Positions 6,460 through 60,690 of a stretch of DNA of 64,000 nucleotides are shown piece by piece. Source of the DNA: a virus (Duplodnaviria > Caudoviricetes). The stretch's first letter is position 1, and each line of letters starts with the position of its first letter. A program made the position numbers and the translations under genes. The notes under the pieces are model-generated. The model was not told the DNA's origin, did not search any database, and saw only the letters and a list, made by a program, of their open reading frames with translations. The stretch spans positions 32,001-96,000 of the IMG/VR virus record IMGVR_UViG_3300037067_004728; one strand, 5' to 3'.

Positions 6460-7211
6460 AATGAATCGAAGAGATTTCTTTGAATCCAGAGTACGTCCTG
6501 TACGCCCATTGACAAAATTAGAGGTACAAAAAAAAGCTGAACGGTTTGCAAAGAAATATTTAAAGGAACAGGGCTTAATTGGTCCTAAACTCCCTACTAT
6601 GTGGAAAGTAGATATTGGTGAAAAAGAGCCACTTATTGTTACGGCCTTAACTCGTTCAGATGCGAGGTCAGAAATTAAGAAAGAACTAGGCGTTAAGAAA
6701 CTTCCAGTTGGACTTAAAATTGAAAAGGTAGTTTATGAACCCCCTATTTACAGACAGATTAAAGGCAGCTAATCTCACTGGTGAAGTTATATTTAATATC
6801 TTCACACATTTAGAGACTATTTTGCGCGAGTCAAATTCAGGTCAAGCTGCATTGACTTTGGGCTACATTGCACCGACTGATGATATACAAGAAGGTGACT
6901 TAGTACCAACAATCAATGTTGTTTTGACACAATATCAAAAGCCGGACTACGATCATGCTAATAAATCCTGATGTGACACTATTGCCACGATTGCCAGAAG
7001 GGGCGGTGCCATTATCAGGAGTTGGGCACGTACAGTTAGCTATTTATAAGCAAACAAGGTATCATTGGTGCCCGGCATGTGATGGTTGGGTCGCAGGCGA
7101 CCCAATTACAACATTTGAACATGAACGTGGTATTTTATGTGGTAGGCACGGCACGTCATATCATTGCCGCCGCTGTAGAACAGAACTCAGTTTTGTAGGG
7201 TGCTATTTTTG

Positions 7212-8009
7212 ATGGATTATCCTCGCGTGATTCATATTGAAACAACCGGACGATGCAATTCACATTGCGTATTTTGTCCACACAGTCGGTCATACCGACG
7301 ACTGATGGATATGCCACAAATATTGTTTGAGAAAATTTTAAAGGATGTAAAAGATATACCACAACGAGTTATTATTGTACCTTTAAAACTTGGCGAACCA
7401 CTTGTGGACCCATTATTTTCAAAACGCTTGCTACAAATTGATGAACAGCTACCAGAGGCTTATTTAGAATTGCATACAAACCTTAATATATTACCACGCG
7501 AGTTTATTCCAACACTTAGAAAGTTACGGCGTGTTAATCACATCTGGGTGTCATTGAATTATTATACGGCAGCGAGTTACCAAGCGGCTACCGGAATGAA
7601 ATTTGACCAAACCCTGTACAACATTAAAAAGTTATTGGAAGCCCGACTACCACATACGATTGCCATTGGACGGGTTTTAGATTACACCATCGAGGACCAA
7701 AAATGGTTAGATTGGGTTAGACGCACTTTTCCACAAGCTAAACCGGCATTTTTACATCGTGGAGATTGGTGCAATAATATTGAAACACCAAATACTATCA
7801 ATGATGGATTTTGTAAGCGTACACTTGAAGTGTCTATTTGCTGTGATGGTAAGGTCGCACTTTGTTGTATGGATGGGTTGTGTGAATACCCATTAGGAGA
7901 TATAACTAAAGAGCATATTTTAGAGGTTTATAATGGGTCAAAAGCGAGCGCCCTGCGTCGTATGACACAGAGGTTACAAGAACCCTGTGCCTCTTGTACT
8001 TTTGTCTAA
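7212..8009 (+). CDS. radical SAM protein with SPASM/twitch domain
   Basis: CNSHCVFC, GEP, HTN; C-terminal C...DGKVALCC.D...C..C. Confidence 0.9.
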   Translation: MDYPRVIHIETTGRCNSHCVFCPHSRSYRRLMDMPQILFEKILKDVKDIPQRVIIVPLKLGEPLVDPLFSKRLLQIDEQLPEAYLELHTNLNILPREFIPTLRKLRRVNHIWVSLNYYTAASYQAATGMKFDQTLYNIKKLLEARLPHTIAIGRVLDYTIEDQKWLDWVRRTFPQAKPAFLHRGDWCNNIETPNTINDGFCKRTLEVSICCDGKVALCCMDGLCEYPLGDITKEHILEVYNGSKASALRRMTQRLQEPCASCTFV

Positions 8010-8022
8010 GGAGGCGACAAAT

Positions 8023-9276
8023 ATGTGGGAATTTTTAACGACTCAACTTGCTAATAATCAATTCTTATCCGGCGGTGCGGTACTAGCCATTTTTGGTGGA
8101 TTAGCATTATATCTACGAAGTATCCCTTCATATATTTTTACGTGGACAAAACATCGTTTAATTACAGAAATTGATATTCCAGATCGTGACGAAGCCTTCA
8201 AGTGGATGAATGTTTGGTTGTCTCAACATCCTTATAAAAAGCGTTGCCGTTGGTGGACGGTTCAAACACGTCGTCAAAGAGATTATGACGAAGGGCCAGG
8301 AGATTCACGGGAACGAAAGAAACCGAAGATTATTTTATCACCTGCCCCCGGCTTGCATTTTTTGTTTTATAAACAGAAGTTAATGATTTTGTATCGTGAA
8401 CGAAAAGATACTCAAGGTAAGGGTGACACGGCGGCATTAGGTTTTCGTGAAACTTTTACCATCAAGTTATTTAGCCGTAACAAACAAGTTGTTTATGATT
8501 TGATTGAAGAAGCAAGACTTGCTGCGCATCCAGTCGATTCAGAACGACTAAGGATTTTACGTCCTGACTATAATGAGTGGTGTGAAATTACAAAAAGATT
8601 ACTACGCCCATTCAAATCTGTCATTCTGGATAATGACCTCAGTGGTAGAATCCTACAAGATGTTAAACAGTTTATTGAGTCAGAAAAATGGTATAATGAA
8701 ATAGGTATACCATATCGTCGTGGGTATTTACTTTCTGGCCCTCCTGGTAACGGTAAAAGTTCATTAGTTACTGCAATTGCATCAGAGTTACGTCTTGATA
8801 TTTGTACCTTAAATTTAAGTAACCATAGTCTAAATGACGAAAAACTTGTGGAACTTATGGCGAATGTTCCAATGAATAGTTTAGTTTTAATCGAGGATGT
8901 TGACTGTGTATTCCATGAGCGCAAAAAGGTGGATGATAGTGAAAGTGTTACCTTTTCTGGTTTACTGAATGCAATTGATGGTGTAATGTCTAGTGAGGGC
9001 CGGATTTTATTTATGACAACCAATCATAAAGAAGTGCTGGACCCCGCTCTGATCCGCCCAGGTCGAGTTGATGTAGACATAACAATCGACAATGCATCAA
9101 GGGCACAGGCCAGTAATTTATTCCTTAGATTCTTTCCTGATATGCCTGATCTGGCTGAGGGCTTTGGTGATAAAATGACAAAAACGTCAGTAAGCATGGC
9201 ACAATTGCAAGGGCATTTGTTAAAATATCGGCACGATGCAATCTCGGCCTTGACTTACCCCGTAAATGAGGTATAA
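8023..9276 (+). CDS. Bcs1-like AAA ATPase with N-terminal TM and BCS1_N-like domain
   Basis: GIPYRRGYLLSGPPGNGKSS, IEDVD, TFSGLLNAIDG, MTTNH, LDPALIRPGRVD; AAGGAGG RBS before ATG 8023. Confidence 0.85.
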   Translation: MWEFLTTQLANNQFLSGGAVLAIFGGLALYLRSIPSYIFTWTKHRLITEIDIPDRDEAFKWMNVWLSQHPYKKRCRWWTVQTRRQRDYDEGPGDSRERKKPKIILSPAPGLHFLFYKQKLMILYRERKDTQGKGDTAALGFRETFTIKLFSRNKQVVYDLIEEARLAAHPVDSERLRILRPDYNEWCEITKRLLRPFKSVILDNDLSGRILQDVKQFIESEKWYNEIGIPYRRGYLLSGPPGNGKSSLVTAIASELRLDICTLNLSNHSLNDEKLVELMANVPMNSLVLIEDVDCVFHERKKVDDSESVTFSGLLNAIDGVMSSEGRILFMTTNHKEVLDPALIRPGRVDVDITIDNASRAQASNLFLRFFPDMPDLAEGFGDKMTKTSVSMAQLQGHLLKYRHDAISALTYPVNEV

Positions 9277-9281
9277 TTGTA

Positions 9282-10136
9282 ATGATGAAGCGTCTTTTAA
9301 TAGCCTTGATTATTTTTCTGCCAAATGTTGTATTTGCACAACAGGCTGATGAATTAAAGAAACACGTTGAGTACCTAGCGTCCCCTGAATTGGATGGACG
9401 ACAAGTTGGTACAGCCGGATGTGATAAAGCAGCGGAGTATATTATACAGCAATTAAAGGTATTTGGTTATACCCCAGAAGAACAACCATTTACCATGCAA
9501 CGAGTAACAGCAAAAAATGTAATTGCGGTGCGTAAAGGCAGCCTTGATACGGTAATTGTTGTAGGTGCCCATTATGACCACCTGGGACGCCGTGGTAATC
9601 GCTATTACCCTGGGGCCGATGATAATGCCTCTGGCACAGCAGCGGTTTTAGAGCTATCTAGGATGCTTAAAACGAGTCGGCGAACCATTGTGTTTATACT
9701 ATTCTCTGGGGAAGAGGATGGTTTATATGGTTCGACCTACTATGTAAAGCATCCTAAATATCCAAATGATAAAACGATATTTATGCTTAATCTTGATATG
9801 ATTGGGTATTTACGGCGCGATACACAAGCCTACGTACCAGATGTTCATAAAATATTGAAAGAGTTGTATATCCAATATCCGTGGGCACCGTCCATAGTTA
9901 TTTTGGGTGGTACGGCCAGCGACCAAGAACCTTTTGCAGATATTGGCATACCAGTTGCTTTCTTACATACTGGTTTGCATGGCAATTACCATAGAACAAC
10001 CGATACACCAGATAAACTTAATTATAAAGGAATGGAGCAGATTGTACGCTTTTCGTATGATTTGATTAAAGCCCTTGACACCCACGATTTACCAGACTAC
10101 AATATTACAGGAGTAAAGTATGAGCCAGTCAAGTGA
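9282..10136 (+). CDS. M28 family aminopeptidase with signal peptide
   Basis: GAHYDH, GADDNASG, GEEDG, NLDMIG, YH..TDT. Confidence 0.9.
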   Translation: MMKRLLIALIIFLPNVVFAQQADELKKHVEYLASPELDGRQVGTAGCDKAAEYIIQQLKVFGYTPEEQPFTMQRVTAKNVIAVRKGSLDTVIVVGAHYDHLGRRGNRYYPGADDNASGTAAVLELSRMLKTSRRTIVFILFSGEEDGLYGSTYYVKHPKYPNDKTIFMLNLDMIGYLRRDTQAYVPDVHKILKELYIQYPWAPSIVILGGTASDQEPFADIGIPVAFLHTGLHGNYHRTTDTPDKLNYKGMEQIVRFSYDLIKALDTHDLPDYNITGVKYEPVK

Positions 10137-13164: not shown

Positions 13165-13821
13165 ATGAATTATACAAAAGAACAGATAGCCGCTGCGCTT
13201 GATTATGCTGTCTTAAAACCAACGGCAACTTTGGATGATGTTCAGCGGGCGTGTTTTTTAGCTCAGAGAGAACACTTCGCCTCAGTCTGTGTTCGGCCTT
13301 GCGATGTTCAATTTGCCGCCCAATTCTGTGATGTTCCAATTTCAACGGTTGTTGGTTTTCCACATGGAACTAATGCACCAGAAATCAAACGATTAGAGGC
13401 GCAACAAGCAATACGCGACGGTGCCGAAGAACTTGATATTGTTATGAATTACTCTCGTCTTTTAGGAAAAGACTATGCGTATGTTTATAATGAATTACTT
13501 TACATAACAGAACGACTGCCGTTGAAACCAATTATAAAGGTAATTTTGGAAACGTGTTATTTAACACCGGAGCAAATTACCTCGGCATGTTTATACATTC
13601 AAAAAGTACCTCGCGCGTCGTTTGTTAAAACTTCAACAGGTTTTGGTTCAGGTGGGGCAACTTGTATGGCCGTTGAAATTATGGCTGAGGCAATAAAAAC
13701 TTCAACACTACAAATAAAAGCAAGTGGTGGTATCAATACCTATCAAGATGTTTGCACCTTTTTAGACTTGGGGTGTACTCGTTTAGGTTCGTCGAAATGG
13801 AGCGAATTGTTACCATGCTAA
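13165..13821 (+). CDS. deoC: deoxyribose-phosphate aldolase
   Basis: VVGFPHG, GAEELDIV, KVILET, FVKTSTGF, IKASGGI, RLGSS. Confidence 0.95.
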   Translation: MNYTKEQIAAALDYAVLKPTATLDDVQRACFLAQREHFASVCVRPCDVQFAAQFCDVPISTVVGFPHGTNAPEIKRLEAQQAIRDGAEELDIVMNYSRLLGKDYAYVYNELLYITERLPLKPIIKVILETCYLTPEQITSACLYIQKVPRASFVKTSTGFGSGGATCMAVEIMAEAIKTSTLQIKASGGINTYQDVCTFLDLGCTRLGSSKWSELLPC

Positions 13822-14642
13822 ATGTACCACCCATTTATATCAATCTTGCAGACCAACTTCGATTAAAACAATGTCGATATGGTCCAATGCTATTTCTTGC
13901 CAATGATAGATATATTGGCGGGGCTTTAGATAAATATGGAGAGTTTTCAGAAGGGGAAGTCCACTTGTTTAGGCAGCTTGTGCAACCAAACTGGACAGTT
14001 ATGGATGTAGGAGCCAATCACGGAACTCATACAGTAGCCTTAGCTCAAATAGTTGGAGCTTTTGGTAGAGTTTATGCGTTTGAACCGCAACGGGTTCTAT
14101 TTCAACTGGTATGTGCTAATCTTGCTTTGAATTCACTCGGAAATGTATATGCTTATTGTGGTGGTGTAGGCCGTGAATTAGGCTTTCTTAATGTTCCGCA
14201 AGTTGATTATACACGCCCAAATAATTTTGGAGCCTTGGAAATGGGAGGCATTGGTGGAGATTCTGTGCCATTAGTTACTATTGATTCCTTAACCTTACCA
14301 CAATTGCATTTTGCGAAAATTGACGCCGAAGGTATGGAAGGTGATGTGATAATAGGTGCGACAGAAACAATTGCTAGGTATCGACCATTATTGTACATGG
14401 AAAATGATCGTGAAGATAAGTCCCCCGCACTTATCCAACAAATGTGGGACTTAGACTACGAATTATATTACCATATTCCATTCTACTATAATCGGTACAA
14501 TTTTTACGGAGTCGCCGAGAATATTTATGGAGGAACAATATCGGTTAATATGCTTTGTGTACCGAACGACAAGCCAATAACAGTGCCTAATGAATGCCAT
14601 CCAATAAAAAATGTAACTGACACTTGGAGAATTTGTGTATGA
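13815..14642 (+). CDS. FkbM-family SAM methyltransferase
   Basis: DVGANHG, AFEPQ, KIDAEGME. Confidence 0.9.
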   Translation: MLNVPPIYINLADQLRLKQCRYGPMLFLANDRYIGGALDKYGEFSEGEVHLFRQLVQPNWTVMDVGANHGTHTVALAQIVGAFGRVYAFEPQRVLFQLVCANLALNSLGNVYAYCGGVGRELGFLNVPQVDYTRPNNFGALEMGGIGGDSVPLVTIDSLTLPQLHFAKIDAEGMEGDVIIGATETIARYRPLLYMENDREDKSPALIQQMWDLDYELYYHIPFYYNRYNFYGVAENIYGGTISVNMLCVPNDKPITVPNECHPIKNVTDTWRICV

Positions 14643-15205
14643 ACAGATTGTTTTATAATCGTGTTTATTTAGCTGGACCAATTGACTTAGCGCCTGATTT
14701 TGGAGTTGGGTGGCGTATAAGAATTCAAGAGGACTTGAAAGATTTGAATTTAATTTTTCTTGATCCTTGTCATAAACCAATGTTTCCTGGATATGAGTGT
14801 CCAGATTTGGAAGATCATGTAGCTCGACAGCGTTTGAAAGAACGGGGTGACTGGGAAACTTTATCGAAACAAATGCGTGAGATACGTTGCATCGACCTTC
14901 GATTATGTGATATTTGTGATTTTTCCATCGTGCATCTTGATATGAATGCCTACTCAACTGGTACAATGGAAGAATGGACAACTCTCAACCGACGTAAGGC
15001 ACCAATTCTTTTGCACATGGAACAAGGTTTACGAGCCGTTCCCGATTGGTTACGCGGCGTCCTTCCACCAGAAATGATGTTTGAACGCTGGTGTGATTTA
15101 ACGGCGTATGTCAGACATATTGCTTATGATAGAGAAATTGATACATTAGGTCGATGGCGATTTTTTGATTGGTCACGACTCTATAAGATTCCTCAAGCAC
15201 AATGA
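14639..15205 (+). CDS. nucleoside 2-deoxyribosyltransferase-like / nucleotide N-glycosidase
   Basis: VYLAGPI..WR, DL..CDICD, STGTMEE. Confidence 0.75.
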   Translation: MNRLFYNRVYLAGPIDLAPDFGVGWRIRIQEDLKDLNLIFLDPCHKPMFPGYECPDLEDHVARQRLKERGDWETLSKQMREIRCIDLRLCDICDFSIVHLDMNAYSTGTMEEWTTLNRRKAPILLHMEQGLRAVPDWLRGVLPPEMMFERWCDLTAYVRHIAYDREIDTLGRWRFFDWSRLYKIPQAQ

Positions 15206-15570
15206 ATGAACCACATTATATTTGCGGCTCCTCCCTTAGCGGTCTTATCGTTAATAAAATACTGGGCGATAATCAAGTTAGTTTAACTTGTCATCGAAGT
15301 ATAGCAGTTTCTACCCAACGTGGGGATTTAACGTCGCCTATTACTACTTCTGAGTGGTGGTTGTATTGGCAGCATGGCACCCTTCTTATTGGGGATATGC
15401 CAGAGTATGAAGCTCGTGAAGCCGCTGCGTTATTTGTATACCTCTATGGGCAGGGTATTCCTTATCCAATAGCCAGTGTAATCGCTATAGATGCGATAAA
15501 CTGGCGTCTAAAATGCAAAAATCGTTGAGTATCTGCTTGACAACGATAAAATTCATGCTAAAGTTGTAGT

Positions 15571-16107
15571 ATGAAGATACTCAAACGTCGTTTATCCAGT
15601 GGTTTCGTCAAGTATCCGAAAGATTTTGATAGGCGTATTATTGATGGAACCGCCCGGTTTCGTACAAAATGCGATATGCTTGTCGGACCTTGTGCTTGTG
15701 GAGGCGTTCATCAAGAACATGACGATTGGGTCCAACAGCTATTAGGGGATAATGACGCTGTTATTGAGCCATTGATGCTGGCCCCAGAAGAATCTGGAAT
15801 CATACTCATCCCACGGTATTGGTTGAGGCCACGCGGCCACGAGCGTTGTACGGTATTGTCAGGACGATGTGCTTGTGGACGTAATCATACTGCCAACGAG
15901 CGCTGGGTTGTTGACTTGCTTGCGAGTCATGGGGCTAAACTTATTGGATGTAAAGAAGTAGATTTGCCGCCTGTAGGTGACGTGGCTAATGAAATAAACG
16001 AGTACGATGATGCTGGTGGAGCGACTATTGGATGCCCGTGCGAAAATTGTCAGCATCGTAGACAAAATGCTCGATTCGGGCGACGATTAAATCGGAGTCA
16101 GATTTAA
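15571..16107 (+). CDS. Cys/His-rich protein with internal duplication
   Basis: CDMLVGPCACGGVH...WV..LL and CTVLSGRCACGRNH...WV..LL; leaderless start 6 nt after the -10 box. Confidence 0.6.
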   Translation: MKILKRRLSSGFVKYPKDFDRRIIDGTARFRTKCDMLVGPCACGGVHQEHDDWVQQLLGDNDAVIEPLMLAPEESGIILIPRYWLRPRGHERCTVLSGRCACGRNHTANERWVVDLLASHGAKLIGCKEVDLPPVGDVANEINEYDDAGGATIGCPCENCQHRRQNARFGRRLNRSQI

Positions 16108-16395
16108 TGCGATTGCAAGAATTTATGGTTGAATATCCGCAAGATGTAAAGCGGATGAAAACACAAATTATTAGTATGACAAAAATTTTCAGCGTTCTTG
16201 AAATGAAGGACGGTGAGGTTTTTGTAGAAACTGAGGATACGGATGAAGAAGGGGTTACTACTATTGAAGTATTACGTAGTAGGGATAGAACCCACTTCAC
16301 GATAGTATGGCGTGAGCGTAAGGGGGTTGAGCATAATGAAATGCGATCATACCCCCGTGATAATCAATTCCCTCTTTTTAGTGTTGTAAGACTTA

Positions 16396-17700
16396 ATGCC
16401 AGTATTTAGTAGAACATATCGTCGCCCGGCAAACCATGATCCACGACCAGTTTTTATGCGCCCGGATGCAGAAATCCGTCGTGAAGATGTGGTCTTTGAA
16501 ACCGTAGATCGACATTTTGATATTAGTTGGGATCAGCCAACCGATGAAGTAGCCCTTATTTTTGATCGTGACCACCCGGAAAACAGACCAATTATGTGCC
16601 GGGCTAGTGCAGGAGATTTTGCGGCGATTGAGCGAGAAATTTATCGGCTGATGGATGAAGAACGTGCCAATGAGGACCGCCAACGCCATCATTCTTGGTT
16701 CCACGGCGTTGATGTGGGCCGTGATCCCCAGTTGATCGAACATACATTTTATGGCCCAGACTCTCATGCCGATCAATTTCATAGAGAGTACATGGCAGAA
16801 CCGCTTGAAGAAGTCCCTGCGGTTACTCCTGGTTTGATTGAAGAACAGGAACGTCGAGCTAGGGACGATTACCGACGATTCATGGACAATTATATTGCCA
16901 ATCGCCTTAATATACCATCGCCAACACAACCTGCCCCTAATGCTCAAAATCTAACGCCTGGGGCCGAAGTATTTTCGCATTGGGTGTCGGACGAATCCTC
17001 TAGTGTTAGCGGGTCGTTGGTACAGCAATTAGCTCGAATGGACCGTGATAGAGAGACTCAGAGGCAGCGAACACGTCGGAACCGTAATTATTTGACATGG
17101 ATGCCATATAGTAGCTATCGTAAGTGTGCAGCTTGTTTTGAAGATTCTGATCTAAAGCACATGCGAGTTAATATACTGCGAACATTACGATACCTTGAAC
17201 GTAATTCTCGGCCAACACGGCACAAGGCGGTTGAACTGTGGCGCGGTTTTGAACAGTCACTAATTAGATATGGGATTGCAATTGCCTTAGAATGTCGTCA
17301 AAGAGGTTTTAGTGACACGTCATTAGTTACCTTACGATCAAAGTACCGGCACGGCTATAGTCAAAAGCCGGATTGGGTTTATTGGACCGACTTACAAGAA
17401 TCACATCGGGCCTATTTACTGTTACGTAATGAACGCCGATTTGCTGTTAAATTGTTAGGTCACTATGCTCGTCGAACAGTAACAGAATGGTGTAGTCATC
17501 GAGATTTCTGTCACAATATTGGAATCCGTGCCAAGCGTGAGTGGACGGTAGATGATATAAACACTATTCGTCATGTTATGGGGGATGTTAGTGGCGGAAA
17601 TATAAATCTTGTAAATGATAATTTTTATCGTCAGTATGGATGGACTCAAGAACCAACTGAGTCTTTCCGCTATCCACAGGATAATTTATGCTCAGCATAG
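16396..17700 (+). CDS. hypothetical protein with C-terminal MSMEG_6728/pyrimidine-dimer glycosylase-like domain
   Basis: TWMPYSSY, HKAVELWRGFEQSLIRYG, RGFSD, PDW, SHR motifs. Confidence 0.6.
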   Translation: MPVFSRTYRRPANHDPRPVFMRPDAEIRREDVVFETVDRHFDISWDQPTDEVALIFDRDHPENRPIMCRASAGDFAAIEREIYRLMDEERANEDRQRHHSWFHGVDVGRDPQLIEHTFYGPDSHADQFHREYMAEPLEEVPAVTPGLIEEQERRARDDYRRFMDNYIANRLNIPSPTQPAPNAQNLTPGAEVFSHWVSDESSSVSGSLVQQLARMDRDRETQRQRTRRNRNYLTWMPYSSYRKCAACFEDSDLKHMRVNILRTLRYLERNSRPTRHKAVELWRGFEQSLIRYGIAIALECRQRGFSDTSLVTLRSKYRHGYSQKPDWVYWTDLQESHRAYLLLRNERRFAVKLLGHYARRTVTEWCSHRDFCHNIGIRAKREWTVDDINTIRHVMGDVSGGNINLVNDNFYRQYGWTQEPTESFRYPQDNLCSA

Positions 17701-18096
17701 GAATGTTAGTCGAGTTTATTAAAGACCTTCGCGGGATAGTCCCTGAACCTGCGAGAAGTGAAATTGCTCATCGGCTGGGGGATTTAATTTCAAATGTTTT
17801 AAGAAACGCCGATAATGATAATTACCGTCGGTGGGTGTCCGAAGATAGACTGCGATTTCTGCGGCATTGTGAGCTAGTCAATCTTGATCGTTGGGTGCCG
17901 GATGATTTATATATTGAACCTACGGTATTGGCTGAATTTTGCAATCGGTGGATGAGTTGCAATCTCTTCAAAATTCGTAATGACCCCTCAGCAGAGTGGA
18001 AGCCAATTACTCCCGAAATGAATGGATTACGTGTAACAATGATCGAGGAACTACGTTCACTTGACAAGGCGGGAAAATAGTGTATAGTTATGGTAT

Positions 18097-18450
18097 ATGA
18101 CTTTACCCGATTTAGTAACGCAGAAGTTAAGCGGGCTGTCCGCCCCAGCCGCTTACGATCTCTTAGCAGCCCTGGGACATGCCAATGTGTTCATTTATTT
18201 ACAGGGGCAGCTAGTGGTGGTGAAGGATTGGGTCAAGGACGACGAAGTGGCATGGTTGCCAGCGAACAACACACCAGAGACCACCTTCTGGGGAGGTCCA
18301 CCAACCAAATTGGGGTACTACCAAGGGAACCTTTACATATTGTTACTGGACAGGATTTACGATTACTTATTAACACACACTTTGGGCGAACTCTATCAGA
18401 CGATGGGGATAACGCCGAAGCAAAGGACATTTCAATGGTTGTCCGCGTAA
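18097..18450 (+). CDS. GGPP-family paralog 1 (unknown function)
   Basis: LSGLSAPAAYDLL ... FWGGPPTKLGYYQGNLYILLLD; promoter at 18061-18088. Confidence 0.75.
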   Translation: MTLPDLVTQKLSGLSAPAAYDLLAALGHANVFIYLQGQLVVVKDWVKDDEVAWLPANNTPETTFWGGPPTKLGYYQGNLYILLLDRIYDYLLTHTLGELYQTMGITPKQRTFQWLSA

Positions 18451-18791
18451 CAAATAAAAATCCGACACTATACACCGCCCTACGTGAGAAGCTAAGCAAA
18501 TTATCGGCAGCCCGCGCGGTTAATTACCTAAATTATAGTTTTGATGCGGGCTTTGAAGAAATAGAAATCAACGGAGTTAAATCAACGCCAGTAGCATTGA
18601 TGAGTGATTTGCCCGGATTGCAAACTGTATTGGCCTGTGAAGTTGCCCCTCTTTCATTTTGGGGTGGTCCCCCTGGGAAGCGAACTTGGTATGATGGCAG
18701 CCTTTTAACACTTCTAGCCGATCATATCATGCGAGCCGCCGATGCAGGCAATTTAGCATTGCTAGGGCGGTTTCTGAATCTAACAATATGA
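18435..18791 (+). CDS. GGPP-family paralog 2
   Basis: ATG 18435 with AAGGA; LSKLSAARAVNYL ... FWGGPPGKRTWYDGSLLTLLAD. Confidence 0.75.
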   Translation: MVVRVTNKNPTLYTALREKLSKLSAARAVNYLNYSFDAGFEEIEINGVKSTPVALMSDLPGLQTVLACEVAPLSFWGGPPGKRTWYDGSLLTLLADHIMRAADAGNLALLGRFLNLTI

Positions 18792-19147
18792 AAAAGAATC
18801 ATTTGAAACAGGCCGAAGCATTAGTCGGCCATTTTAAGCCGATTGACTTGGACTGTGCTTATACATTGGCGTATGCCCTGGGGCATCAAGATACAGATGT
18901 ACTCTTAATGACACCCAATGTGCGAACAACAGTGCGCCAGATTTATGCAGGAACGGCCCCTGGCTGTCCTGCGGATCGGATTCATATTCAATTTTATGGT
19001 GGTCCTGTGGGTCATGGGGCTTGGTATACTGGTACTATCTACAGTTTTATTTTAGATATTGTTGCCGCAAAGATTCAAATGGAAGGCTTTGAAAGGGTAC
19101 GACAATTATTGAGACTAAGACGCCAATCTGGATGTCCGCCATTCTAG
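18788..19147 (+). CDS. GGPP-family paralog 3
   Basis: FYGGPVGHGAWYTGTIYSFILD. Confidence 0.75.
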   Translation: MKKNHLKQAEALVGHFKPIDLDCAYTLAYALGHQDTDVLLMTPNVRTTVRQIYAGTAPGCPADRIHIQFYGGPVGHGAWYTGTIYSFILDIVAAKIQMEGFERVRQLLRLRRQSGCPPF

Positions 19148-19494
19148 CAACTTTGTATTCATCGTTAGGTAATTTAACGGTGATTCAATTTGTACAGAAT
19201 ATGCGTGAATTGAATTCTATGGATGATACATTGACTATTCCTGCTTTCAAAGGTAATGGTCGCTGTTCAGTTTGGGAATTAGGTACTGTTTCATTTGGAT
19301 TGGCAAAAGCCCGAACTATTCCATGTCGTTTTTATGGTGGACCGCCACATAATAGAGCAATGTATACTGGAACACTATTAACTATGTTTATTGATAGATT
19401 GCTTACAACTGCTTTAGAACGTAATTTCAATGTAATCGACAAATTCGTCCCCGCTGAAATCCCTGATGGCCCAGCAATGGGTTGGATTGGTTGA
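19132..19494 (+). CDS. GGPP-family paralog 4
   Basis: FYGGPPHNRAMYTGTLLTMFID. Confidence 0.75.
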   Translation: MSAILATLYSSLGNLTVIQFVQNMRELNSMDDTLTIPAFKGNGRCSVWELGTVSFGLAKARTIPCRFYGGPPHNRAMYTGTLLTMFIDRLLTTALERNFNVIDKFVPAEIPDGPAMGWIG

Positions 19495-19524
19495 CAATCT
19501 TCTTTTGTGTGCTATTATTAAGGT

Positions 19525-19872
19525 ATGGCGATTGACAGCAATCTTTTAAATGAACTTTCGGAAATAAGTGCAGAAGATGCCATCGAATTACTTTGCACTG
19601 AATTTGGTTTGGGTCGCTCTTGGATAACCTTTGTCAATACTCATAATAGAGCGGAAGTCAAATCATTTTTAGGCGCGATTTATTTACGTGGTATAGCGGC
19701 GGCGGATGTTGGACCAATTGAATTTTGGGGTGGGCCTCCGACTCGAAAAGGGTATCAAAAAGGTACGCTATTAACTTATCTTTGTGACGCGATTCTTTTA
19801 CACTGGGCAATCGAAGGTAATTACGCGGATATGGTTCAAGGAACACATGAAGATCAACTTTACGTTACTTAA
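19525..19872 (+). CDS. GGPP-family paralog 5
   Basis: LSEISAEDAIELL ... FWGGPPTRKGYQKGTLLTYLCD; leaderless from promoter 19491-19518. Confidence 0.75.
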   Translation: MAIDSNLLNELSEISAEDAIELLCTEFGLGRSWITFVNTHNRAEVKSFLGAIYLRGIAAADVGPIEFWGGPPTRKGYQKGTLLTYLCDAILLHWAIEGNYADMVQGTHEDQLYVT

Positions 19873-20176
19873 AAACCGTTTTGGTGACATATCCGCATTA
19901 GATGCTCTTGAACTGCTTTGTTGGACCTTTGGAGCAGATAAGGCATATATAACCGTTGATGGTATGCGTATGCCATTAGTCGATTTATATGATGATACTG
20001 GAATGTTTACTTGGAAAGCATCGGATGTTGACCTTCAATTTTATGGAGGACCGCCACCTGCAAAATGGTGGGATGGTACACTTTTAACTATGCTTCTGGA
20101 TCATTTTCTCTATGCTTATTCTAAAAATGATTTGGTCAAGGTACATAAAGCCTTGAAAGTACATGCGACCGTTTGA
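19847..20176 (+). CDS. GGPP-family paralog 6
   Basis: ATG 19847 with AAGGA; FGDISALDALELL ... FYGGPPPAKWWDGTLLTMLLD. Confidence 0.75.
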   Translation: MKINFTLLKNRFGDISALDALELLCWTFGADKAYITVDGMRMPLVDLYDDTGMFTWKASDVDLQFYGGPPPAKWWDGTLLTMLLDHFLYAYSKNDLVKVHKALKVHATV

Positions 20177-20504
20177 AGATTATCAACGTGAATTTGCAGA
20201 TTTGTCAGCCGGTGACGCCATTACAATTCTGTCAGAAATGGGTGTGGAAAAAGATCGGATTATTATACAAAGCCCGTCGGGCAACGTAATGACAACGCCA
20301 ATGAAATTATGTTTCAAACTGCCTTATAATTACCCTGCCAGAGAGGTAGGACCAATTCAATTTTGTGGCGGTCCACCTGGACAATATAACTGGATCGAAG
20401 GCTCATTAACTACAATGGTTATGGATCATGTTATGCACCATGATGCAACCGAAGAACAAAAATCTCGTCTTTATGGCACAAAAATTGCAGGGTTAGGCTG
20501 CTAA
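20163..20504 (+). CDS. GGPP-family paralog 7
   Basis: FADLSAGDAITIL ... FCGGPPGQYNWIEGSLTTMVMD. Confidence 0.75.
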   Translation: MRPFEDYQREFADLSAGDAITILSEMGVEKDRIIIQSPSGNVMTTPMKLCFKLPYNYPAREVGPIQFCGGPPGQYNWIEGSLTTMVMDHVMHHDATEEQKSRLYGTKIAGLGC

Positions 20505-26714: not shown

Positions 26715-27018
26715 ATTCAGACTTTTTAGCCGCGCGGCTACGAAAACAGGTCGGACTAGAATGGGAGGATGCAATAGTTTGGATAACAAAGGTAGAGAAG
26801 GTAACAGAGAAACAGGTAGTTTGTAAAAATCGTACACGTAAGCCAGGTAAAAAGAATATTGTCGGTTATTCTACTCTTATGAATGAATCACCTAACAACG
26901 GTCATGCCGGTTGTTTTAATCGTAGGGTTTTTATCGAAGATGCCAATGGCATTGCACCAGAAGCGGCGTTCCCTGGCGTACCTCTTGACAAGTGCCGATA
27001 GTATGGTAGAATATAAGT

Positions 27019-27441
27019 ATGGAAGAAACCTTGACAAAAACTTTAGAAGTCGATATTCAAAACCTGATAATGGCTTTTGAAGCCCTGTCAACTGGTAAAA
27101 CTTTAGATGATGCGTATTTGCTCGTCGAAGATTTAGGTTATAAGGACCGAATTATTCTTGTCGGGCATAAAGGTATTACCACTCTTTCGAGGGTCTGTAC
27201 TGAGCCAGATTGGGCAAAGCAGCCAATGGAGAAGGTTATCATTAAATTCAAAGGTGGCCCTGGGCCTGAAATTTGTGGCCATTCAATTTTTACTGCGAGT
27301 GTGCGGGCGTATGTTGTGGACCGACTAATTAAGACTGTAATGGCAAGCGGAGTAGAACCGGCTTTAGAAGCCATTAAGGTTATTTGGGGCATTAACGTGA
27401 AGTGCGGAGCATCAATAGATGATCCGGTATTATCAAACTGA
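27019..27441 (+). CDS. distant GGPP-family member (possible paralog 8)
   Basis: LDDAYLLV ... IKFKGGPGP...FTASVRAYVVD; leaderless from promoter 26985-27012. Confidence 0.5.
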   Translation: MEETLTKTLEVDIQNLIMAFEALSTGKTLDDAYLLVEDLGYKDRIILVGHKGITTLSRVCTEPDWAKQPMEKVIIKFKGGPGPEICGHSIFTASVRAYVVDRLIKTVMASGVEPALEAIKVIWGINVKCGASIDDPVLSN

Positions 27442-50157: not shown

Positions 50158-50505
50158 GGGGACGAATCGGATTCGACCGGATAGCTAGAAGTGTAGGATG
50201 CGTGCCGTGGTTGGACGACAGGCCACGTAAAAAGTCGCCCGTTAAATCTTAATTGCCAAGCCTAGCTTTGCAATGGCTGCGTAAAGCAGCCCCGGTTGAG
50301 AGTCCTAGCCCGATGGACTTGACTACCGGCCATAAATCGGGACCGCCTTGACCGACGCCAGTGAGTCAAGGTTAAATAAACTGGATAGCAACCCGCCAAC
50401 CTTGTCGATTTGGGAAGCGGGAAGCGAAATATCAAAAATCGACTATGCACGTAGACGACTGCATGGAAGTATCGCGGGACGCGGGTTCAATTCCCGCCGT
50501 CTCCA
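50158..50505 (+). ncRNA. ssrA: tmRNA; tag ORF 50255-50284 = AKPSFAMAA*
   Basis: GGGGACG/CGTCTCC acceptor stem with G3-U, GGATTCGAC, PK1, TAATT-GCC resume context, T-arm GCGGGTTCAATTCCCGC. Confidence 0.93.
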
Positions 50506-50767
50506 CTTAACCATAGCTCGGCAGTTATGGTGCCGCCCGTTGTGGCCGGGCGGCAATTTTATTTGGAGGTTTTATGGATCGTGAATTAGTAGAAACTGTG
50601 CGTGATTTTGTGAAAAATGGTAAGGTGTTTGTGCATCTTATCACAGAATCTAAGATTGTCGAATTTCCTGCCAGCGGTGTGCATAGTGCGGGCGGGTATT
50701 TGGTGGTCGAAGTCAAAATTCCAGAGCTACCACTTGACAAGCATTAAATGTGTGGTAGTATTGAATA

Positions 50768-51445: not shown

Positions 51446-52726
51446 ATGCCGAGTTGTTGGGAATGTGGTGGCGATTTTGCTTTGTCCGAGTTGACGCAAC
51501 GCGGGCAAGCCCATTTTTGTCAACAATGCTACGCCACTTTATATTGCCGCTGTTCGGTATGTGGCCGGGAAGTTGAACATGATGAGGCAATTTTTAGTGC
51601 CACCGACCACCGGCCATACTGTCAGGCTTGCTATCAAGAGCGGTTAGTACACTGCCATAATTGCGGGCGCGAAACAAACAGAAACACTCGGCACACAATC
51701 GAGGACCATAGCTATTGTAGCTCATGCTTTGATCGGTTGTATACGCATTGTGCTAACTGCGATACCATTTTGCATCGGCATGATACGTGGTCCACCCCCG
51801 GTAACGATAGATACTGTCAACGCTGTTTTGACGAAAATTGCAGCGTATGTAGCCGTTGCGGTGAAACATTTTGGAATTGCGATATGCGCCGTACCGACCA
51901 CGGCGTATTTTGTGATGAATGTTATCGTGAAAATGATGAGTGGTCGGCGGGCGAATTCATTATTTCCGATCCGCATTATGATGTAATCGGATCGAAACGC
52001 CGCTATGGTGTCGAACTTGAAACTTCACGATGCAATGATTATCGGTCACTGCATGGCAATACAATATGGGAATGTAAAACAGATTGCTCGATTGAGGGGC
52101 GCGAGTTTGTTTCCCCAATTCTGTGCGGGGATGAGGGGTTAATGGAAATCACTGCATTTTGTACCATTGCTCGCCGAAAGCGTTGGCAAGTCAATAGATA
52201 CTGTGGTTATCATGCCCATTTCGATGTGGCCGATGAAAGCTGGGAAGCCTTGCGAAGTATCGCGTATGCGTACCGCAAAACGTATGACTTATGGTGTTGT
52301 CTAGTGTCAGAACAACGGGCAAACAACCCTTATGCTGGGTCGCCGGATTATATGCCAGAGGATGTACGGGCTATTCGCAATGCTTCCGATTGGGATTATT
52401 TTGTCGGTGCGCGTGACCGATTCGAGTTTGTCAACTGGCGGGCTTATCTGGTACACGGAAGTTTTGAGGTTCGATCCCATGATGCTACTCTTGACGCGAA
52501 TGTCATTTGTAACTGGATTAAACTTCATGCTCGCTTTATGGATCGTGTTAAGACAATGACTCTTGACGAAATTGACGACCAATTTAGTGGTAACATAGCA
52601 TCACAATTTGCAGCTTTGAGCGAATTTGTGGGTGAAGAATTATCTTTGGAATACGCTGTTATTGCCGAAGAATTTGGGCATACCCTCATACCGAGGGAGA
52701 TTGTGGCCCTTGCCCCGCCGTTTTAA
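51446..52726 (+). CDS. putative amidoligase (COOH-NH2 ligase) with 10 N-terminal CxxC motifs
   Basis: YGVELET, DCSI..EFVSPIL, CGYHAHFD, EVRSH, CNWIK. Confidence 0.82.
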   Translation: MPSCWECGGDFALSELTQRGQAHFCQQCYATLYCRCSVCGREVEHDEAIFSATDHRPYCQACYQERLVHCHNCGRETNRNTRHTIEDHSYCSSCFDRLYTHCANCDTILHRHDTWSTPGNDRYCQRCFDENCSVCSRCGETFWNCDMRRTDHGVFCDECYRENDEWSAGEFIISDPHYDVIGSKRRYGVELETSRCNDYRSLHGNTIWECKTDCSIEGREFVSPILCGDEGLMEITAFCTIARRKRWQVNRYCGYHAHFDVADESWEALRSIAYAYRKTYDLWCCLVSEQRANNPYAGSPDYMPEDVRAIRNASDWDYFVGARDRFEFVNWRAYLVHGSFEVRSHDATLDANVICNWIKLHARFMDRVKTMTLDEIDDQFSGNIASQFAALSEFVGEELSLEYAVIAEEFGHTLIPREIVALAPPF

Positions 52727-52856
52727 TTTTGACTTGACTTTTCCACGACCTGTGGTATAGTTAATAGAGTGAGGGGCGATAAAAAGCCGTCGCCTAGCAA
52801 AACTCACTAGGCTGTAGTAGCCCAACTGTCAGGCTTGTGAGAGTGAGGTATTTTGC

Positions 52857-53771
52857 ATGTGTGGTTTGTTTGGTGCGATTGGTTTGGGTTGGAATGAGGG
52901 CGTCATTAGGGCGCTGACGTGGGCGAACCAAGAGAGGGGTACAGATTCTCTTGGTTTCTTCGATTCGTCCGGCAAGATGATTAAGTGTGCTGAAACCCCC
53001 AGTGATGCGCTGTGTAAGGATAACATTTCGCGCTGGCTTGATGCGTCTTGCCGTGGGTCTGAAAAGCTGGGTCGGGCCGCGAGTTGGTTTATTGCCGGGC
53101 ATACTCGGCTTGCCACCCGTGGTAAGGTGAACCGTCAGAATTCGCACCCGTTCCGATACGGTCGAATTATCGGTTCCCACAATGGAATGATCGACGCCCC
53201 CAAGGGGTATGTGGTCGATTCGCAGCATTTGTTCGATGCGTTGCACAAGGCCAAGGGTGACTATAATTCGGCATGGGCCGATATTACGGGTTACTGGGCG
53301 GTAACGTGGTTTGACGATAATGCTTTCTATCTGCAAGTCCATAATGGCGACTTGACGGTGGCCCGTAAGGGAGAGGTATGGTACTACTCCTCGGCATGGT
53401 CTCACCTGGAAAGCTGCATCGGCACTGCCGATGAGGTTATCACGCTGAAAGAGGGCGAAACCCTGCGGTTTACTCTTGAAAATGGCGTGATTGTCAAGTC
53501 CGATGCTCCTAAGTTTGTGTCGGCTGCCCCGGATTACTGGGTTAAGAAATACGGTTGCAGCAATACCAACGATTGGGAGGATGAATACTACGGGTCGGGC
53601 CGTTCCTTCCGTCGTCACGGTAGCCGTGGCAAGGGTTCATGGTACGATCACCATGATTACACAAGCACGACTACCCCAACAAGCACGGGCACTGTCAAGG
53701 ATTATGATGCCGATTGGCGGGAAGCATGGGAAGCCTACTCTACGGAGAGTGAACACGCCAAGGTTGACTAA
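52857..53771 (+). CDS. class II (Ntn) glutamine amidotransferase
   Basis: MCGLFG N-terminal Cys, RG.DS.G, GHTRLAT, NSHPF, HNG, DS. Confidence 0.9.
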   Translation: MCGLFGAIGLGWNEGVIRALTWANQERGTDSLGFFDSSGKMIKCAETPSDALCKDNISRWLDASCRGSEKLGRAASWFIAGHTRLATRGKVNRQNSHPFRYGRIIGSHNGMIDAPKGYVVDSQHLFDALHKAKGDYNSAWADITGYWAVTWFDDNAFYLQVHNGDLTVARKGEVWYYSSAWSHLESCIGTADEVITLKEGETLRFTLENGVIVKSDAPKFVSAAPDYWVKKYGCSNTNDWEDEYYGSGRSFRRHGSRGKGSWYDHHDYTSTTTPTSTGTVKDYDADWREAWEAYSTESEHAKVD

Positions 53772-53788
53772 TGGTTGTCGGTTTCTAC

Positions 53789-53825
53789 GGGCGGTAACAT
53801 AAAAACTTGCCGCCCATTTTTATTT
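53789..53825 (+). terminator. intrinsic terminator
   Basis: GGGCGGTAA/TTGCCGCCC plus T-run. Confidence 0.7.
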
Positions 53826-53881
53826 GACTTCCCCTTTTTTTGATGATATAGTTAAGTTGTTCACTTAACCATGAGGTACTA

Positions 53882-54937
53882 ATGCCAGCATCAAGTTTAC
53901 CCTTACCCGATCTAGCGGATACCCCCACACAGTCACGATACCAATGTCGGTTATGTGGCCGTCGATTCACGGAGAATCCGTGCCGTGGCCCAGAGAATAT
54001 GTGTCTGTGCCAAAATTGCTACGACCGTGAATGTTTCGTTTGCACTGTTTGCGGACGAATCGAATTTAGCAACGGTCGCCGACAACTGGCGCTAGAACCC
54101 AATGGCCCGCCCGTCGCTATTTGCCGCAACTGTGAGCATGAATATCGAACGTGGAATCATGCGGAATTTGTAGTTGAAGATGCAAGCTACAAAAAGATTC
54201 GCAGTACCCGCAAGTTTGGTATCGAGTTGGAAACATCGGATTGCCCCAATTATCGCAGTCTAAAAGGGGCAACGCCTTTTGGCGCGAAAGTTGATTGCTC
54301 GATTCATGGTATGGAATTCACTTCTCCGATTTTGTATGGCGATGAGGGTCTTGCCGCTGTTGAAGAATTTTGCAATCACGCTGATCGTCTCGATTTTGAC
54401 GTGGATAGCGATTGCGGGTATCACCTGCATATTGATATGCGGGGTGAATCGGTTGACGCCTTGAAGTCGGTTGCGTATGCGTACACGAAAGCAGACTCGG
54501 TATGGCGTTTGCTTGTCGATTCATTCCGAGCGAATGATTGCGGTTACTGCCGCCGCCCGGAATTTGGTCGGAGTGAAATTTCGCGGGTATGGGATGAGTA
54601 CAGCATGGAGAGATTTTGCGACCGGCAGAATCGCTACACTCTATGCAATCTTAATGCCTACACTAAGTTTGGCAGTTATGAGATTAGGTTGCATCAGGGA
54701 AGTTTAGATGCCCGTGTCATTTGCAACTGGATTAAGGCCCATTTGCGGTTTGTCGATTGGGCGAAAGATAAGACATTCGACGAAATTGACGACGCCTTTC
54801 GTGGATCGGATTTAGCCCGCTGGGAATCACTGAAAGCCATTTTTGGCGATATTGACCTTAACCGCTACTATGGCCGTGTACGTCGTGGCCGGTTGAACGA
54901 AAGCACCGAACGTGAACGGGCCGAAGTTGCTGTATAG
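53882..54937 (+). CDS. putative amidoligase with 4 N-terminal CxxC motifs
   Basis: FGIELET, DCSI..EFTSPIL, CGYHLHID, EIRLHQGSLD, CNWIK. Confidence 0.82.
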   Translation: MPASSLPLPDLADTPTQSRYQCRLCGRRFTENPCRGPENMCLCQNCYDRECFVCTVCGRIEFSNGRRQLALEPNGPPVAICRNCEHEYRTWNHAEFVVEDASYKKIRSTRKFGIELETSDCPNYRSLKGATPFGAKVDCSIHGMEFTSPILYGDEGLAAVEEFCNHADRLDFDVDSDCGYHLHIDMRGESVDALKSVAYAYTKADSVWRLLVDSFRANDCGYCRRPEFGRSEISRVWDEYSMERFCDRQNRYTLCNLNAYTKFGSYEIRLHQGSLDARVICNWIKAHLRFVDWAKDKTFDEIDDAFRGSDLARWESLKAIFGDIDLNRYYGRVRRGRLNESTERERAEVAV

Positions 54938-54976
54938 CGATAGGCCCTGTTTTACAACCCCTCACTCATAGGGGAG

Positions 54977-55006
54977 AACCCGACCTAATAAGTCGGGTTT
55001 CTTTTT
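54977..55006 (+). terminator. intrinsic terminator
   Basis: AACCCGAC/GTCGGGTT plus T-run. Confidence 0.75.
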
Positions 55007-55925
55007 AATCGGTTGGTCCATTTGTCGGGGTCATATTTCCAGACGTGCGCTTCTATGACCCCGATCATTGGAATCTTTAGAAAATTACCACCTATACTTG
55101 ACAAGCTAAAAGACTATGATATAGTTTTAATATGTCACTCAAAAATGGTGGTTTTAAGTTGAGACACATGCGTTGGCTGCCTAAGCCACATTGGATCGGA
55201 GTCAATATGTCGCCTCTGGGCGAGTTAGCGTTTTGTATCTTCTGGGGTATCATCGGCCTTATCTGTTTATGGATAGCTCATTCGTAAAGACATGGGTTTT
55301 TCAACTGATGGCTACGGGTTGTGACTATCTTACTGGTAGTCATAATCGCACCGTGTATAGCATAACAGTTTTTGCTACCCGTGAATTGGCCGAGAGCCGA
55401 ATCGAAAGTTTCAAGTCTGCCTGTCTAAATCGACTATTGGAAGCCCCTATTAAAGTGGTAGTTATGCCACTAGAAGTGATTAGCGAATAATTCACTTGAC
55501 TTTCTCGAAAAAGATGATAGGGTAGTAGTATGACACACCTGACTGAATTACCGCCGATCAAACTACCACAACTTGTATCAGCACCGTTCTTTATGCTGGT
55601 ACAAGAGGGTGAGATTCTGGATTGTTGCCAAAATCCAAACGCCCTTATGTGGTCCCTCTTGAATGACGATACTGATTTTTCGGTGGCCGTGGGTGTAATC
55701 AATGAGGATGGCAAGCGGGAAATCGTTGGTACTTGCGCTGAGTTTAAGACTAGGCCCAACAGCACTATTGCCTATCTTACATCGGATATGGACGGCTACC
55801 GTCGGCTGGTAAGCAAAGGTGACGCCGCCGACTGCATCCGTAATCGAGTCTGTACGTTGTATGGAAAAGGCCATTTGTCCGATCCATGCAATTTTTCCAA
55901 GGTCGAAATGATTGAGGGTTAATCC

Positions 55926-56861
55926 ATGCCACGTTGTCACACCTGTAATGCTCTAGTCCCAACCGATCAAATGCACCGTACTCCCTACGGGGAGAATGTT
56001 TGCTGGCAATGTTTTGATCGAGACTTCATACATTGCAATGAATGTGGTCGCCCGGCATGGCGCGGCGATTGTCCTAACGATGACTTGTGCTATGAATGTT
56101 GGGACCGGGTACGATTTTGGAATTCGGAGGAAGTGAGCCACCTTACCACGATTAAAAAGACTGGCAGTGGCCGTTGTTTTGGTATCGAGTTGGAAACTTC
56201 GCAGTGTGACAACTACCCCAAAATGCGGGGTGAAACCTGTTTTGGGGTGAAAGAGGATGGATCGGTTGACGGCATGGAATTTTACTCCCCGATTTTGTGC
56301 GGAGATAAGGGCCTTGCAGAAATCCGAAAATTTTGCCGGTTGGCAAAGCGGCATGACTTCGAGGTTGATGATACTTGCGGGTATCACCTGCATCTTGATA
56401 TGCGGGATACTACCATTGTTCAACGCAAACGAATCGCGTATGCGTATCGCCTGACATTTAGCTTGTGGCAGCATTTGGTACGGGAGGACCGATGGCACAA
56501 TACGTTTTGCGAAGGCCCTAATTACAGCCCGCAAGAGCTACGGGATACCCATAATTTTACTACGTTCGAGCGCCGGCAATGCCGCTATCAGTTTGTCAAC
56601 CTGCGGGCATTTTGTGACCATAGCACGTATGAACTGCGTGGCTTTCAGGGGACACTTGACTACCGCGAAATTTGCAACTGGATTAAAGCCCATTTGCGTT
56701 TTGTCGAATTCGTAAAAGACACGCCGATGGCTGAACTTGATGCCATGTTTGGGCAGGGATTACGTAAAGCCAAACGGAGTTTGCGTAAGGTACTTGGCAC
56801 TTCACTAAGCAACTACTATGCAAAACTCTGGCGTAAACATGCCCATAGGGTGGCCGTATGA
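55926..56861 (+). CDS. putative amidoligase with 4 N-terminal CxxC motifs
   Basis: FGIELET, EDGSV..EFYSPIL, CGYHLHLD, ELRGFQGTLD, CNWIK. Confidence 0.82.
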   Translation: MPRCHTCNALVPTDQMHRTPYGENVCWQCFDRDFIHCNECGRPAWRGDCPNDDLCYECWDRVRFWNSEEVSHLTTIKKTGSGRCFGIELETSQCDNYPKMRGETCFGVKEDGSVDGMEFYSPILCGDKGLAEIRKFCRLAKRHDFEVDDTCGYHLHLDMRDTTIVQRKRIAYAYRLTFSLWQHLVREDRWHNTFCEGPNYSPQELRDTHNFTTFERRQCRYQFVNLRAFCDHSTYELRGFQGTLDYREICNWIKAHLRFVEFVKDTPMAELDAMFGQGLRKAKRSLRKVLGTSLSNYYAKLWRKHAHRVAV

Positions 56862-60554: not shown

Positions 60555-60690
60555 GCTTTAAGACGTGCCGGATTCATGGCCGGAAGGGTGCAAGTCCCAA
60601 TAAGGTCTAGTAGACCAACCGGGTGCAAGGCCCGGCTATCATTCTAAAGCCCGCTATACCGGATGGCCGGTCACTGGCGGGTTTCCTTTT
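60555..60690 (+). ncRNA. candidate small RNA with two UGCAAG-loop hairpins, ending in a terminator
   Basis: GGG-TGCAAGT-CCC, GGTCTA/TAGACC, CCGGG-TGCAAGG-CCCGG; terminator hairpin 60648-60690. Confidence 0.4.

Follow-up and report, generated by a model that had tools for sequence, protein, structure and literature searches.

The DNA described here, hereafter the window, comprises bases 32001-96000 (64,000 nucleotides, nt) of the IMG/VR virus record IMGVR_UViG_3300037067_004728, which totals 105,376 bp. CheckV estimates this record to be 79% complete. It derives from an uncultured double-stranded DNA (dsDNA) phage with a genome of about 130 kb. At issue is a single family of small proteins encoded by seven tandem genes at window positions 18097-20504 and by an eighth gene at 27019-27441, all on the + strand, together with a long open reading frame (ORF) which crosses the entire first gene in a second frame and continues into the second gene. 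The eight paralogs appear to be an old and fixed set. What is new here is that the long ORF at 18090-18791 appears to be kept open by selection rather than being a mere wrong start. The promoters and genes, with lengths in amino acids (aa), are:

18061..18088, + strand: promoter P1, TTGACA-N16-TATAGT; the ATG of member 1 is at +9 after the -10 hexamer, that of the long frame at +2
18090..18791, + strand: long ORF of 233 codons; a 115-codon extension in the +2 frame of member 1, running in frame into member 2
18097..18450, + strand: member 1, 117 aa; family domain; AlphaFold2 predicted local distance difference test (pLDDT) 91.6; the overprinted gene
18435..18791, + strand: member 2, short form, 118 aa; internal ATG; 16-nt overlap with the end of member 1
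18788..19147, + strand: member 3, 119 aa; start/stop overlap ATGA with member 2
19132..19494, + strand: member 4, 120 aa; 16-nt overlap with member 3; the sole member missing from some relatives
19491..19518, + strand: promoter P2, TTGACA-N16-TATTAT; the ATG of member 5 is at +7; leaderless type
19525..19872, + strand: member 5, 115 aa; fused in frame to member 6 in the related locus L009
19847..20176, + strand: member 6, 109 aa; ATG at 19847 with AAGGA upstream; 26-nt overlap with member 5
20163..20504, + strand: member 7, 113 aa; 14-nt overlap with member 6
26985..27012, + strand: promoter P3, TTGACA-N16-TAGAAT; the ATG of member 8 is at +7
27019..27441, + strand: member 8, 140 aa; detached from the array and the best conserved among the paralogs; motif FKGGPG

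Clearly, the eight proteins belong to one family. They align over their full length, with a middle that varies around a constant core. F64, G66, G67, P68 and D85 are invariant, and the N-terminal pattern LxxLSAxDAxxLL is common to the family. For a non-circular test one hidden Markov model (HMM) per member was built from the orthologues in other genomes, the window being excluded, and run against the 362 six-frame ORFs of the window. Each of the HMMs of members 1-7 retrieves all members of the tandem array with E-values of 1e-6 to 1e-20. Member 8 is found by the HMMs of members 3 and 7; in turn, its own HMM finds members 3, 7 and 4. Outside of the family no match was obtained among the 362 ORFs, and the whole 105-kb record contains exactly eight family copies. 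At the DNA level the repeats in the array are limited to short motif-coding stretches. A sequence-only reading of this DNA had noticed seven tandem paralogs with shared motifs, a more distant member at 27019-27441 and no obvious DNA-level repeat. The coordinates, the alignment and the leave-out HMMs agree with it, and the distant member is secured by its links to members 3 and 7. The isoelectric points of the paralogs extend from 4.6 to 9.1, for which reason an interpretation as DNA mimics was rejected.

An AlphaFold2 model of member 1, built on an alignment of 43 sequences, has a predicted template modelling score of 0.82 beside the pLDDT given above. Its two initial helices are followed by a hairpin, two short helices and another hairpin that has GGPP at its turn; of the two helices at the end, the first bears the invariant Asp. 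The domain of member 2 is modelled with pLDDT 85-92 and with the same order of elements. According to these models the paralogs are small α/β proteins of 109-140 aa with FxGGP on a β-hairpin and the invariant Asp on a helix. Foldseek reported no match at E≤0.001 in PDB and BFVD. With VIA-align the best row reached Z 4.6 (death domains) and SAP/LEM-like helix pairs reached Z of about 3, a range which according to the notes of the tool is that of common arrangements. The loose superpositions concern the N-terminal helix pair LxxLSAxDAxxLLxxLG with SAP/LEM/Rho-N helices (Z 2.6-3.4 over 41-59 residues) and the whole member 1 model with death domains (overall weak rows, Z 2.6-4.6). Unlike SAP/LEM/HeH and death domains, the paralog model contains a four-stranded sheet, and Pfam gives no match at E≤1. 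The predicted fold of the family is without a recognisable match, which does not prove it to be a new fold. It had been considered that the predicted folds might be unrelated to each other or that the family might be a known domain of mundane function. Instead, members 1 and 2 share one order of elements and no characterised domain matches.

Related loci were sought with the member 2 alignment. The scans yielded three viral and 36 metagenome contigs, three of the latter duplicating the viral ones. At every related locus the family members stand in tandem on one strand; complete arrays comprise 5-8 of them. The clade of the window comprises the window itself and L009, L010, L011, L013, L014, L016, L017, L018, L020, L021 and L022. 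Here the order is strictly 1-2-3-(4)-5-6-7...8. Orthology is one to one; best and second-best alignment scores are typically 300 vs. 100. Member 4 is absent in L011, L014, L017, L020 and L021, and no other member is ever missing in the clade. In L009, L013, L014, L017 and L018 an orthologue of member 8 follows downstream, at a distance of 4-8 kb from the array. Amino acid identity between orthologues averages 42-52%. The ratio of nonsynonymous to synonymous substitution rates (dN/dS) was computed on the two close pairs which are not saturated, L011/L020 and L017/L021, and amounts to 0.05-0.13 for every member in both pairs. Copy turnover between close relatives was not seen.

As judged from these comparisons the array appears to be an old, fixed and non-redundant set under strong purifying selection. 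That the expansion is old, as had been proposed, is evident because every paralog has its own orthologue in phages with no more than 40-50% identity. The diversifying selection proposed along with it is not supported, given the fixed order, the one-to-one orthology and the low dN/dS. In L009 (7451-8098, on a contig shared with L012) a single open frame of 216 codons unites members 5 and 6; it contains two FxGGPP motifs and an internal Met at the usual start of member 6. This fusion was seen in one genome only. Separately, in a distant clade the last or second-to-last tandem member has about 80-140 extra in-frame codons after the domain (L025:11364-12002, L027:3379-4104, L031:11992-12624, L032:11727-12425, L036:2269-2979, L037:11498-12112, L039:12024-12701). 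Five of these extended frames were scanned, without a Pfam match.

The array is preceded by unusually regular promoters. A scan of the + strand of the window with the pattern TTGACA-N15-18-TAnnnT-N4-10-ATG located 15 copies between 15537 and 57387 vs. 0.54 expected. All have the form TTGACA-N16-TAnnnT with the ATG 5-8 nt past the -10 hexamer. Most often the ATG begins at the seventh base past the hexamer, and this spacing implies that leaderless mRNAs may be widespread in the window. The three array promoters are near-consensus, of the sigma-70 type and 6-8 nt away from an ATG, P1 ahead of members 1-4, P2 ahead of members 5-7 and P3 ahead of member 8. Thus, the promoters recognised earlier at 18061 and 19491, and one of member 8's own (26985), stand. 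Within the blocks successive genes overlap by 4-26 nt. Gene overlaps of such size are the usual layout for coupled translation. From this layout we infer leaderless starts and translational coupling. Two promoters for seven overlapping genes would be the arrangement expected of co-transcribed, translation-coupled subunits.

How, then, might the set operate? In our view it is probable that an ancient set of eight paralogs is held fixed by purifying selection, that member 1 is overprinted by a long form of member 2, and that the products are made together as partners or subunits. Eight non-redundant proteins would be produced together from the P1, P2 and P3 blocks, the overlaps within each block would couple the translation of successive members, and the proteins would act as partners or subunits of one assembly. 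The +2 frame over member 1 would provide a long member 2 with a disordered front, the internal ATG the short form of 118 aa, and the long form might arise from read-through transcripts which carry ATG 18090. The assembly as such we regard as plausible, at somewhat under an even chance. It is suggested because the set is fixed, purifying selection prevails and the layout is a coupled one, and subunits of a hetero-oligomer would be the most economical reading of the set. The fusion of members 5 and 6 in L009 hints, if weakly, at a physical partnership between neighbouring members. Two observations speak against an assembly: five genomes do without member 4, and in the distant clade, where 5-8 members are present, their orthology is unclear.

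Instead of building one assembly, the paralogs could be a fixed set of adaptors, each of which binds a different target on a common scaffold. This we consider possible, though not the likeliest solution; also conceivable is a fixed panel whose members bind independently and take no part in an arms race. The sequence-only reading had suggested a fast-evolving panel, i.e., independent anti-defence or host-binding proteins of differing specificity, diversified by positive selection. Small tandem genes in a non-structural region rich in DNA methyltransferases, a variable middle around a constant core, a member 4 dispensable in some genomes and isoelectric points suggestive of different surfaces all would fit such a panel. 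Yet order is fixed and orthology is one to one across diverged phages, dN/dS in both close pairs gives no sign of positive or relaxed selection, copy number does not turn over apart from the occasional lack of member 4, and the tight gene overlaps suggest equal co-production. These facts speak against the panel, and we regard it as unlikely. Rather, eight paralogs kept as a fixed set by purifying selection suggest a core function with several parts and not disposable accessory genes. This makes the set a good target for structural and interaction work.

The long ORF requires a separate consideration. The +2 frame over member 1 is free of stops in the window, L009, L010, L011, L013, L016, L017, L018, L020 and L022. 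Each of the other members of these genomes, and of L014, L021 and L030, has 3-16 stops in that frame. Stop and codon counts were pooled from 12 genomes. In member 1 the pooled counts give 0.17 stops per 100 codons in the +2 frame, where its own codon composition would predict 3.6; the corresponding values of members 2-8 are 7.6-11.8 observed vs. 7.2-10.1 expected. The share of codons ending in T (T3) is 0.186 in member 1 vs. 0.35-0.39 in all other members. Members 5 and 8, which likewise are the first genes behind such promoters, show neither the T3 nor the stop bias; therefore the position on the transcript does not explain the bias of member 1. In a synonymous shuffle of the domain region, in which the protein and the gene's own codons were kept, P was 0.004 in the window and 0.0005-0.08 per stop-free genome. 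Over nine deep lineages Fisher's combined P is 4.6e-9 with the gene's own codons and 5e-24 with the codon usage of the paralogs.

The databases contain the same construction. At least ten proteins of 179-242 aa, with mutual identities below 50%, have the member 2 domain at the C-terminus and an N-terminal extension with LGRS(T/P)xQ. This motif is FWGGPP read one base back; therefore these proteins are the same long ORF across a member 1-like gene. In a tree of member 2 the closed-frame genomes, i.e., the distant clade, group together with 100/100 support, opposite the open-frame genomes. It follows that the extension is either a single old gain or a single loss. The label 'open' of L039 in this tree probably is an artefact, as its upstream member presumably is in the same frame.

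Is the sequence of the extension conserved as well? The alternative-frame identity of member 1 exceeds the synonymous-shuffle null with z 8.5 vs. 3.7 or less in the paralogs. The synonymous substitution rate (dS) of member 1 is the lowest in one of the close pairs (0.43 vs. 0.66-1.9), not in the other. AlphaFold predicts residues 1-123 of the long form to be disordered (pLDDT 33-47), and the extension has a high content of G, R, L and S. Disorder and a skewed composition are typical of young overprinted products. Taken together, the silent sites of member 1 appear to have some extra conservation, the chief signal being that the frame stays open. Selection would seem to operate mainly on openness and weakly on the sequence of the extension.

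Several observations weigh against a translated long ORF. The +2 frame of member 1 contains one stop in L014 and in L021 and two in L030. The excess of alternative-frame identity is also present in the +1 frame, which is full of stops. At conserved residues the share of synonymous differences is not lowered in member 1 (0.608 vs. 0.57-0.64). The start position of the long ORF is not fixed and lacks a clear ribosome-binding site. A promoter at 37852 which directly precedes tRNA-Leu (37888) has the text TATAGTTATGGTATG in common with P1, so ATG 18090 may be mere promoter sequence.

Hence it may be argued that the long ORF is not translated, that the open +2 frame is a by-product of the codon usage of member 1 and that gene callers simply prefer the longer ORF. 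In fact, the low T3 by itself lowers the expectation from about 9 to 3.6 stops per 100 codons, and the unconserved start, the barely constrained extension and the few stops in L014, L021 and L030 agree with this. We hold it to be improbable. Member 1 has about 20 times fewer stops than its own codons predict (2 in about 1,200 codons vs. about 43), the combined P with the gene's own codons contradicts it, and no other member is biased, including members 5 and 8 behind their leaderless-type promoters. We know of nothing else that would deplete one of eight co-expressed paralogs of T-ending codons along its whole length. Programmed -1 ribosomal frameshifting, i.e., a start on member 1 and a slip into the long frame to yield a two-domain fusion of members 1 and 2, would fit a long frame which is the -1 frame of member 1 and continuous with member 2, the natural two-domain fusion in L009, and a frame open only across the second half of member 1 in L014 and L030; however, on reading the sequence around the motif (no formal scan was made) no conserved slippery heptamer stood out, and frameshifting would need no open frame ahead of the slip site; in fact, openness begins with the very start of member 1, where seven genomes supply an ATG in the long frame, so that we reject it as very unlikely.

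We are left with comparative evidence which shows the ORF 18090-18791 to be evolutionarily maintained, its frame across member 1 being counted as open in 11 genomes of 40-50% amino acid identity, and by which it would encode a 233-aa long form of member 2. The sequence-only reading had treated member 2 as hidden behind a wrong start. It was correct insofar as 18435 is a conserved start; it erred about the long ORF, which itself is kept free of stops. Gene callers, or readers, who discard the long ORF as a wrong start would overlook the overprint.

The start codons deserve a closer look. In the window AAGGA is positioned 8 nt upstream of the internal ATG 18435. An in-frame ATG at the end of member 1 is present in all 12 genomes of the clade, and therefore the short member 2 is likely to exist as well. 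P1-type promoters with two ATGs 4-7 nt apart are also found in L009, L010, L013, L014, L016 and L018. Counted from the -10 hexamer, seven genomes have the long-frame ATG at +2 or +5 and that of member 1 invariably at +9, which is two bases farther than the common +7. In four genomes the long frame has its first ATG within member 1, 10-30 codons from the start of that gene. ATG 18090 is located 9 nt past the stop of the upstream gene. Given its position at +2 after the hexamer, it probably is present only on read-through transcripts from upstream.

At this point we can only speculate about a regulatory use. The eight paralogs could be a hetero-oligomeric machine with a new fold, the first two genes of which form a transcript-dependent frame switch. 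A short P1 transcript starting at or next to the AUG of member 1 would yield member 1 and the short member 2. Read-through transcripts, or those which start slightly earlier, would offer the AUG 4-7 nt upstream and yield the long member 2 with its disordered tail. If so, the choice of the mRNA 5' end would set the subunit composition of the assembly during infection. As a whole we deem this proposal doubtful.

Overprinted and embedded genes are well known from phages, e.g., Rz/Rz1 of lambda and, in phiX174, B within A and E within D. As in these cases, a second frame inside an existing gene appears to be kept open by selection, and the younger product is predicted to be disordered and compositionally skewed. 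The distribution among the clades suggests that the family domain is the older frame and the extension came later. Unlike Rz/Rz1 and the phiX174 genes, the overprinted frame lengthens the following gene by about 115 codons at its N-terminal end, and this gene and the overprinted one are paralogs. Further differences are a dsDNA phage of about 130 kb without obvious pressure on genome size, and a selection which seems directed mainly at openness. We consider the overprint to be a statistically strong candidate for a gene of a large dsDNA phage being read in two frames along its whole length, with the seven paralogs per genome as built-in controls. Schlub et al. (2018, PMC6188560) describe the detection of overlapping genes by ORF length against nulls of codon permutation or synonymous randomisation. 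The same null logic was applied here, with significant results; a comparison of 11 diverged genomes and the use of seven paralogs per genome as controls were added.

Two further comparisons concern the set as such. T4-type internal-protein loci and anti-CRISPR loci are quickly turning-over tandem arrays of small accessory phage genes. The array has in common with them tandem small genes of one family, a non-structural region and strong promoters. It differs in that the set is fixed, orthology is one to one, selection is purifying and similarity to known families is absent. Lsm1-7 and the α/β subunits of the proteasome, in turn, are paralog sets which build hetero-oligomers. By analogy only, the phage genes resemble them as seven or eight old paralogs of equal size, each with its own orthologue and presumably made together. 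Unlike Lsm1-7 and the proteasome, their predicted fold is unrelated, one member can be lost, and the count varies in the distant clade.

The family has escaped recognition. Pfam, PHROGs and PADLOC, none of which is a dedicated anti-defence collection, returned nothing at E≤1 for any of the eight proteins. INPHARED, the GenBank phage collection, contained neither a DNA nor a protein match. A sequence-profile search of PDB gave nothing below E 0.17, and look-ups in the ESM Atlas gave no usable match. Evidently, the family was rightly called unrecognised in the earlier reading. Among 185,579 prokaryote species, represented by one genome each, there is no family copy, hence no clue to the host. 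The related loci all came from contigs of uncultured phages, in virus or metagenome collections. When 1.84 billion representatives were searched with a profile, 393 clusters (50% identity) were obtained at E≤1e-3 and 117 at E≤1e-10, and in the sources these relatives are named 'hypothetical protein' or left blank. Large as it is, the family has neither a name nor a known role, and no structure matches it.

A search for fusions of the family domain to known domains found none, and Pfam matched neither the ten long forms scanned from the databases nor nine extended ones from the loci. Most of the long database forms are the overprinted long member 2. In P0112, P0120, P0148 and P0156 (200-219 aa) the family domain is C-terminal and the N-terminal half contains SWFGG...GYT. 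This half resembles a degenerate second in-frame copy of the motif, and the four proteins possibly are tandem-domain forms. P0112, the only one of this subgroup which was scanned, had no Pfam match.

Nearly all genes of the window are on the + strand, and all annotated ones are non-structural. They include DNA and RNA ligases, several DNA methyltransferases, a glutamine amidotransferase, four amidoligase paralogs, a radical SAM enzyme and a BCS1-like AAA ATPase. RNA genes are represented by seven tRNAs and one transfer-messenger RNA (tmRNA). Other equipment of this group of large uncultured phages includes tRNAs, a tmRNA, numerous modification enzymes, and Ro60 together with Y RNAs. The array is joined on its upstream side by:

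17688..18080, + strand: gene of a 130-aa protein adjoining the array; found beside the array in 21 of 22 loci by tblastn

The stop of this gene, TAG at 18078-18080, falls within the spacer of P1, and its protein had no match in Pfam, PHROG or PDB. The block upstream of the array is kept together with it in 13-21 of the 22 loci; the genes downstream of the array differ among the loci. The conserved part of the block (13165-17700) codes for a DeoC-like aldolase, a protein with weak similarity to nucleoside-deoxyribosyltransferases, three proteins without assigned function and a 434-aa protein with a domain of the T4 endonuclease V type (Pyr_excise, pyrimidine-dimer-glycosylase). A gene for an FkbM-type methyltransferase within the block was matched in only 4 of the 22 loci. 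The block 13165-17700 may be a module for DNA modification or nucleotide salvage.

Elsewhere in the window, ARAGORN places the tmRNA gene at 50158-50506 with the tag peptide AKPSFAMAA. The region 51446-63454 contains the four Amidoligase_2 paralogs (51446, 53882, 55926 and 62045), the first of which carries N-terminal zinc ribbons, and a glutamine-amidotransferase-like gene (52857). At 7200-10136 the genes of a radical SAM/SPASM enzyme, the BCS1-like AAA ATPase, which includes a BCS1 N-terminal domain, and an M28 peptidase are adjacent to each other. An ATPase of the BCS1 type is uncommon for a phage.

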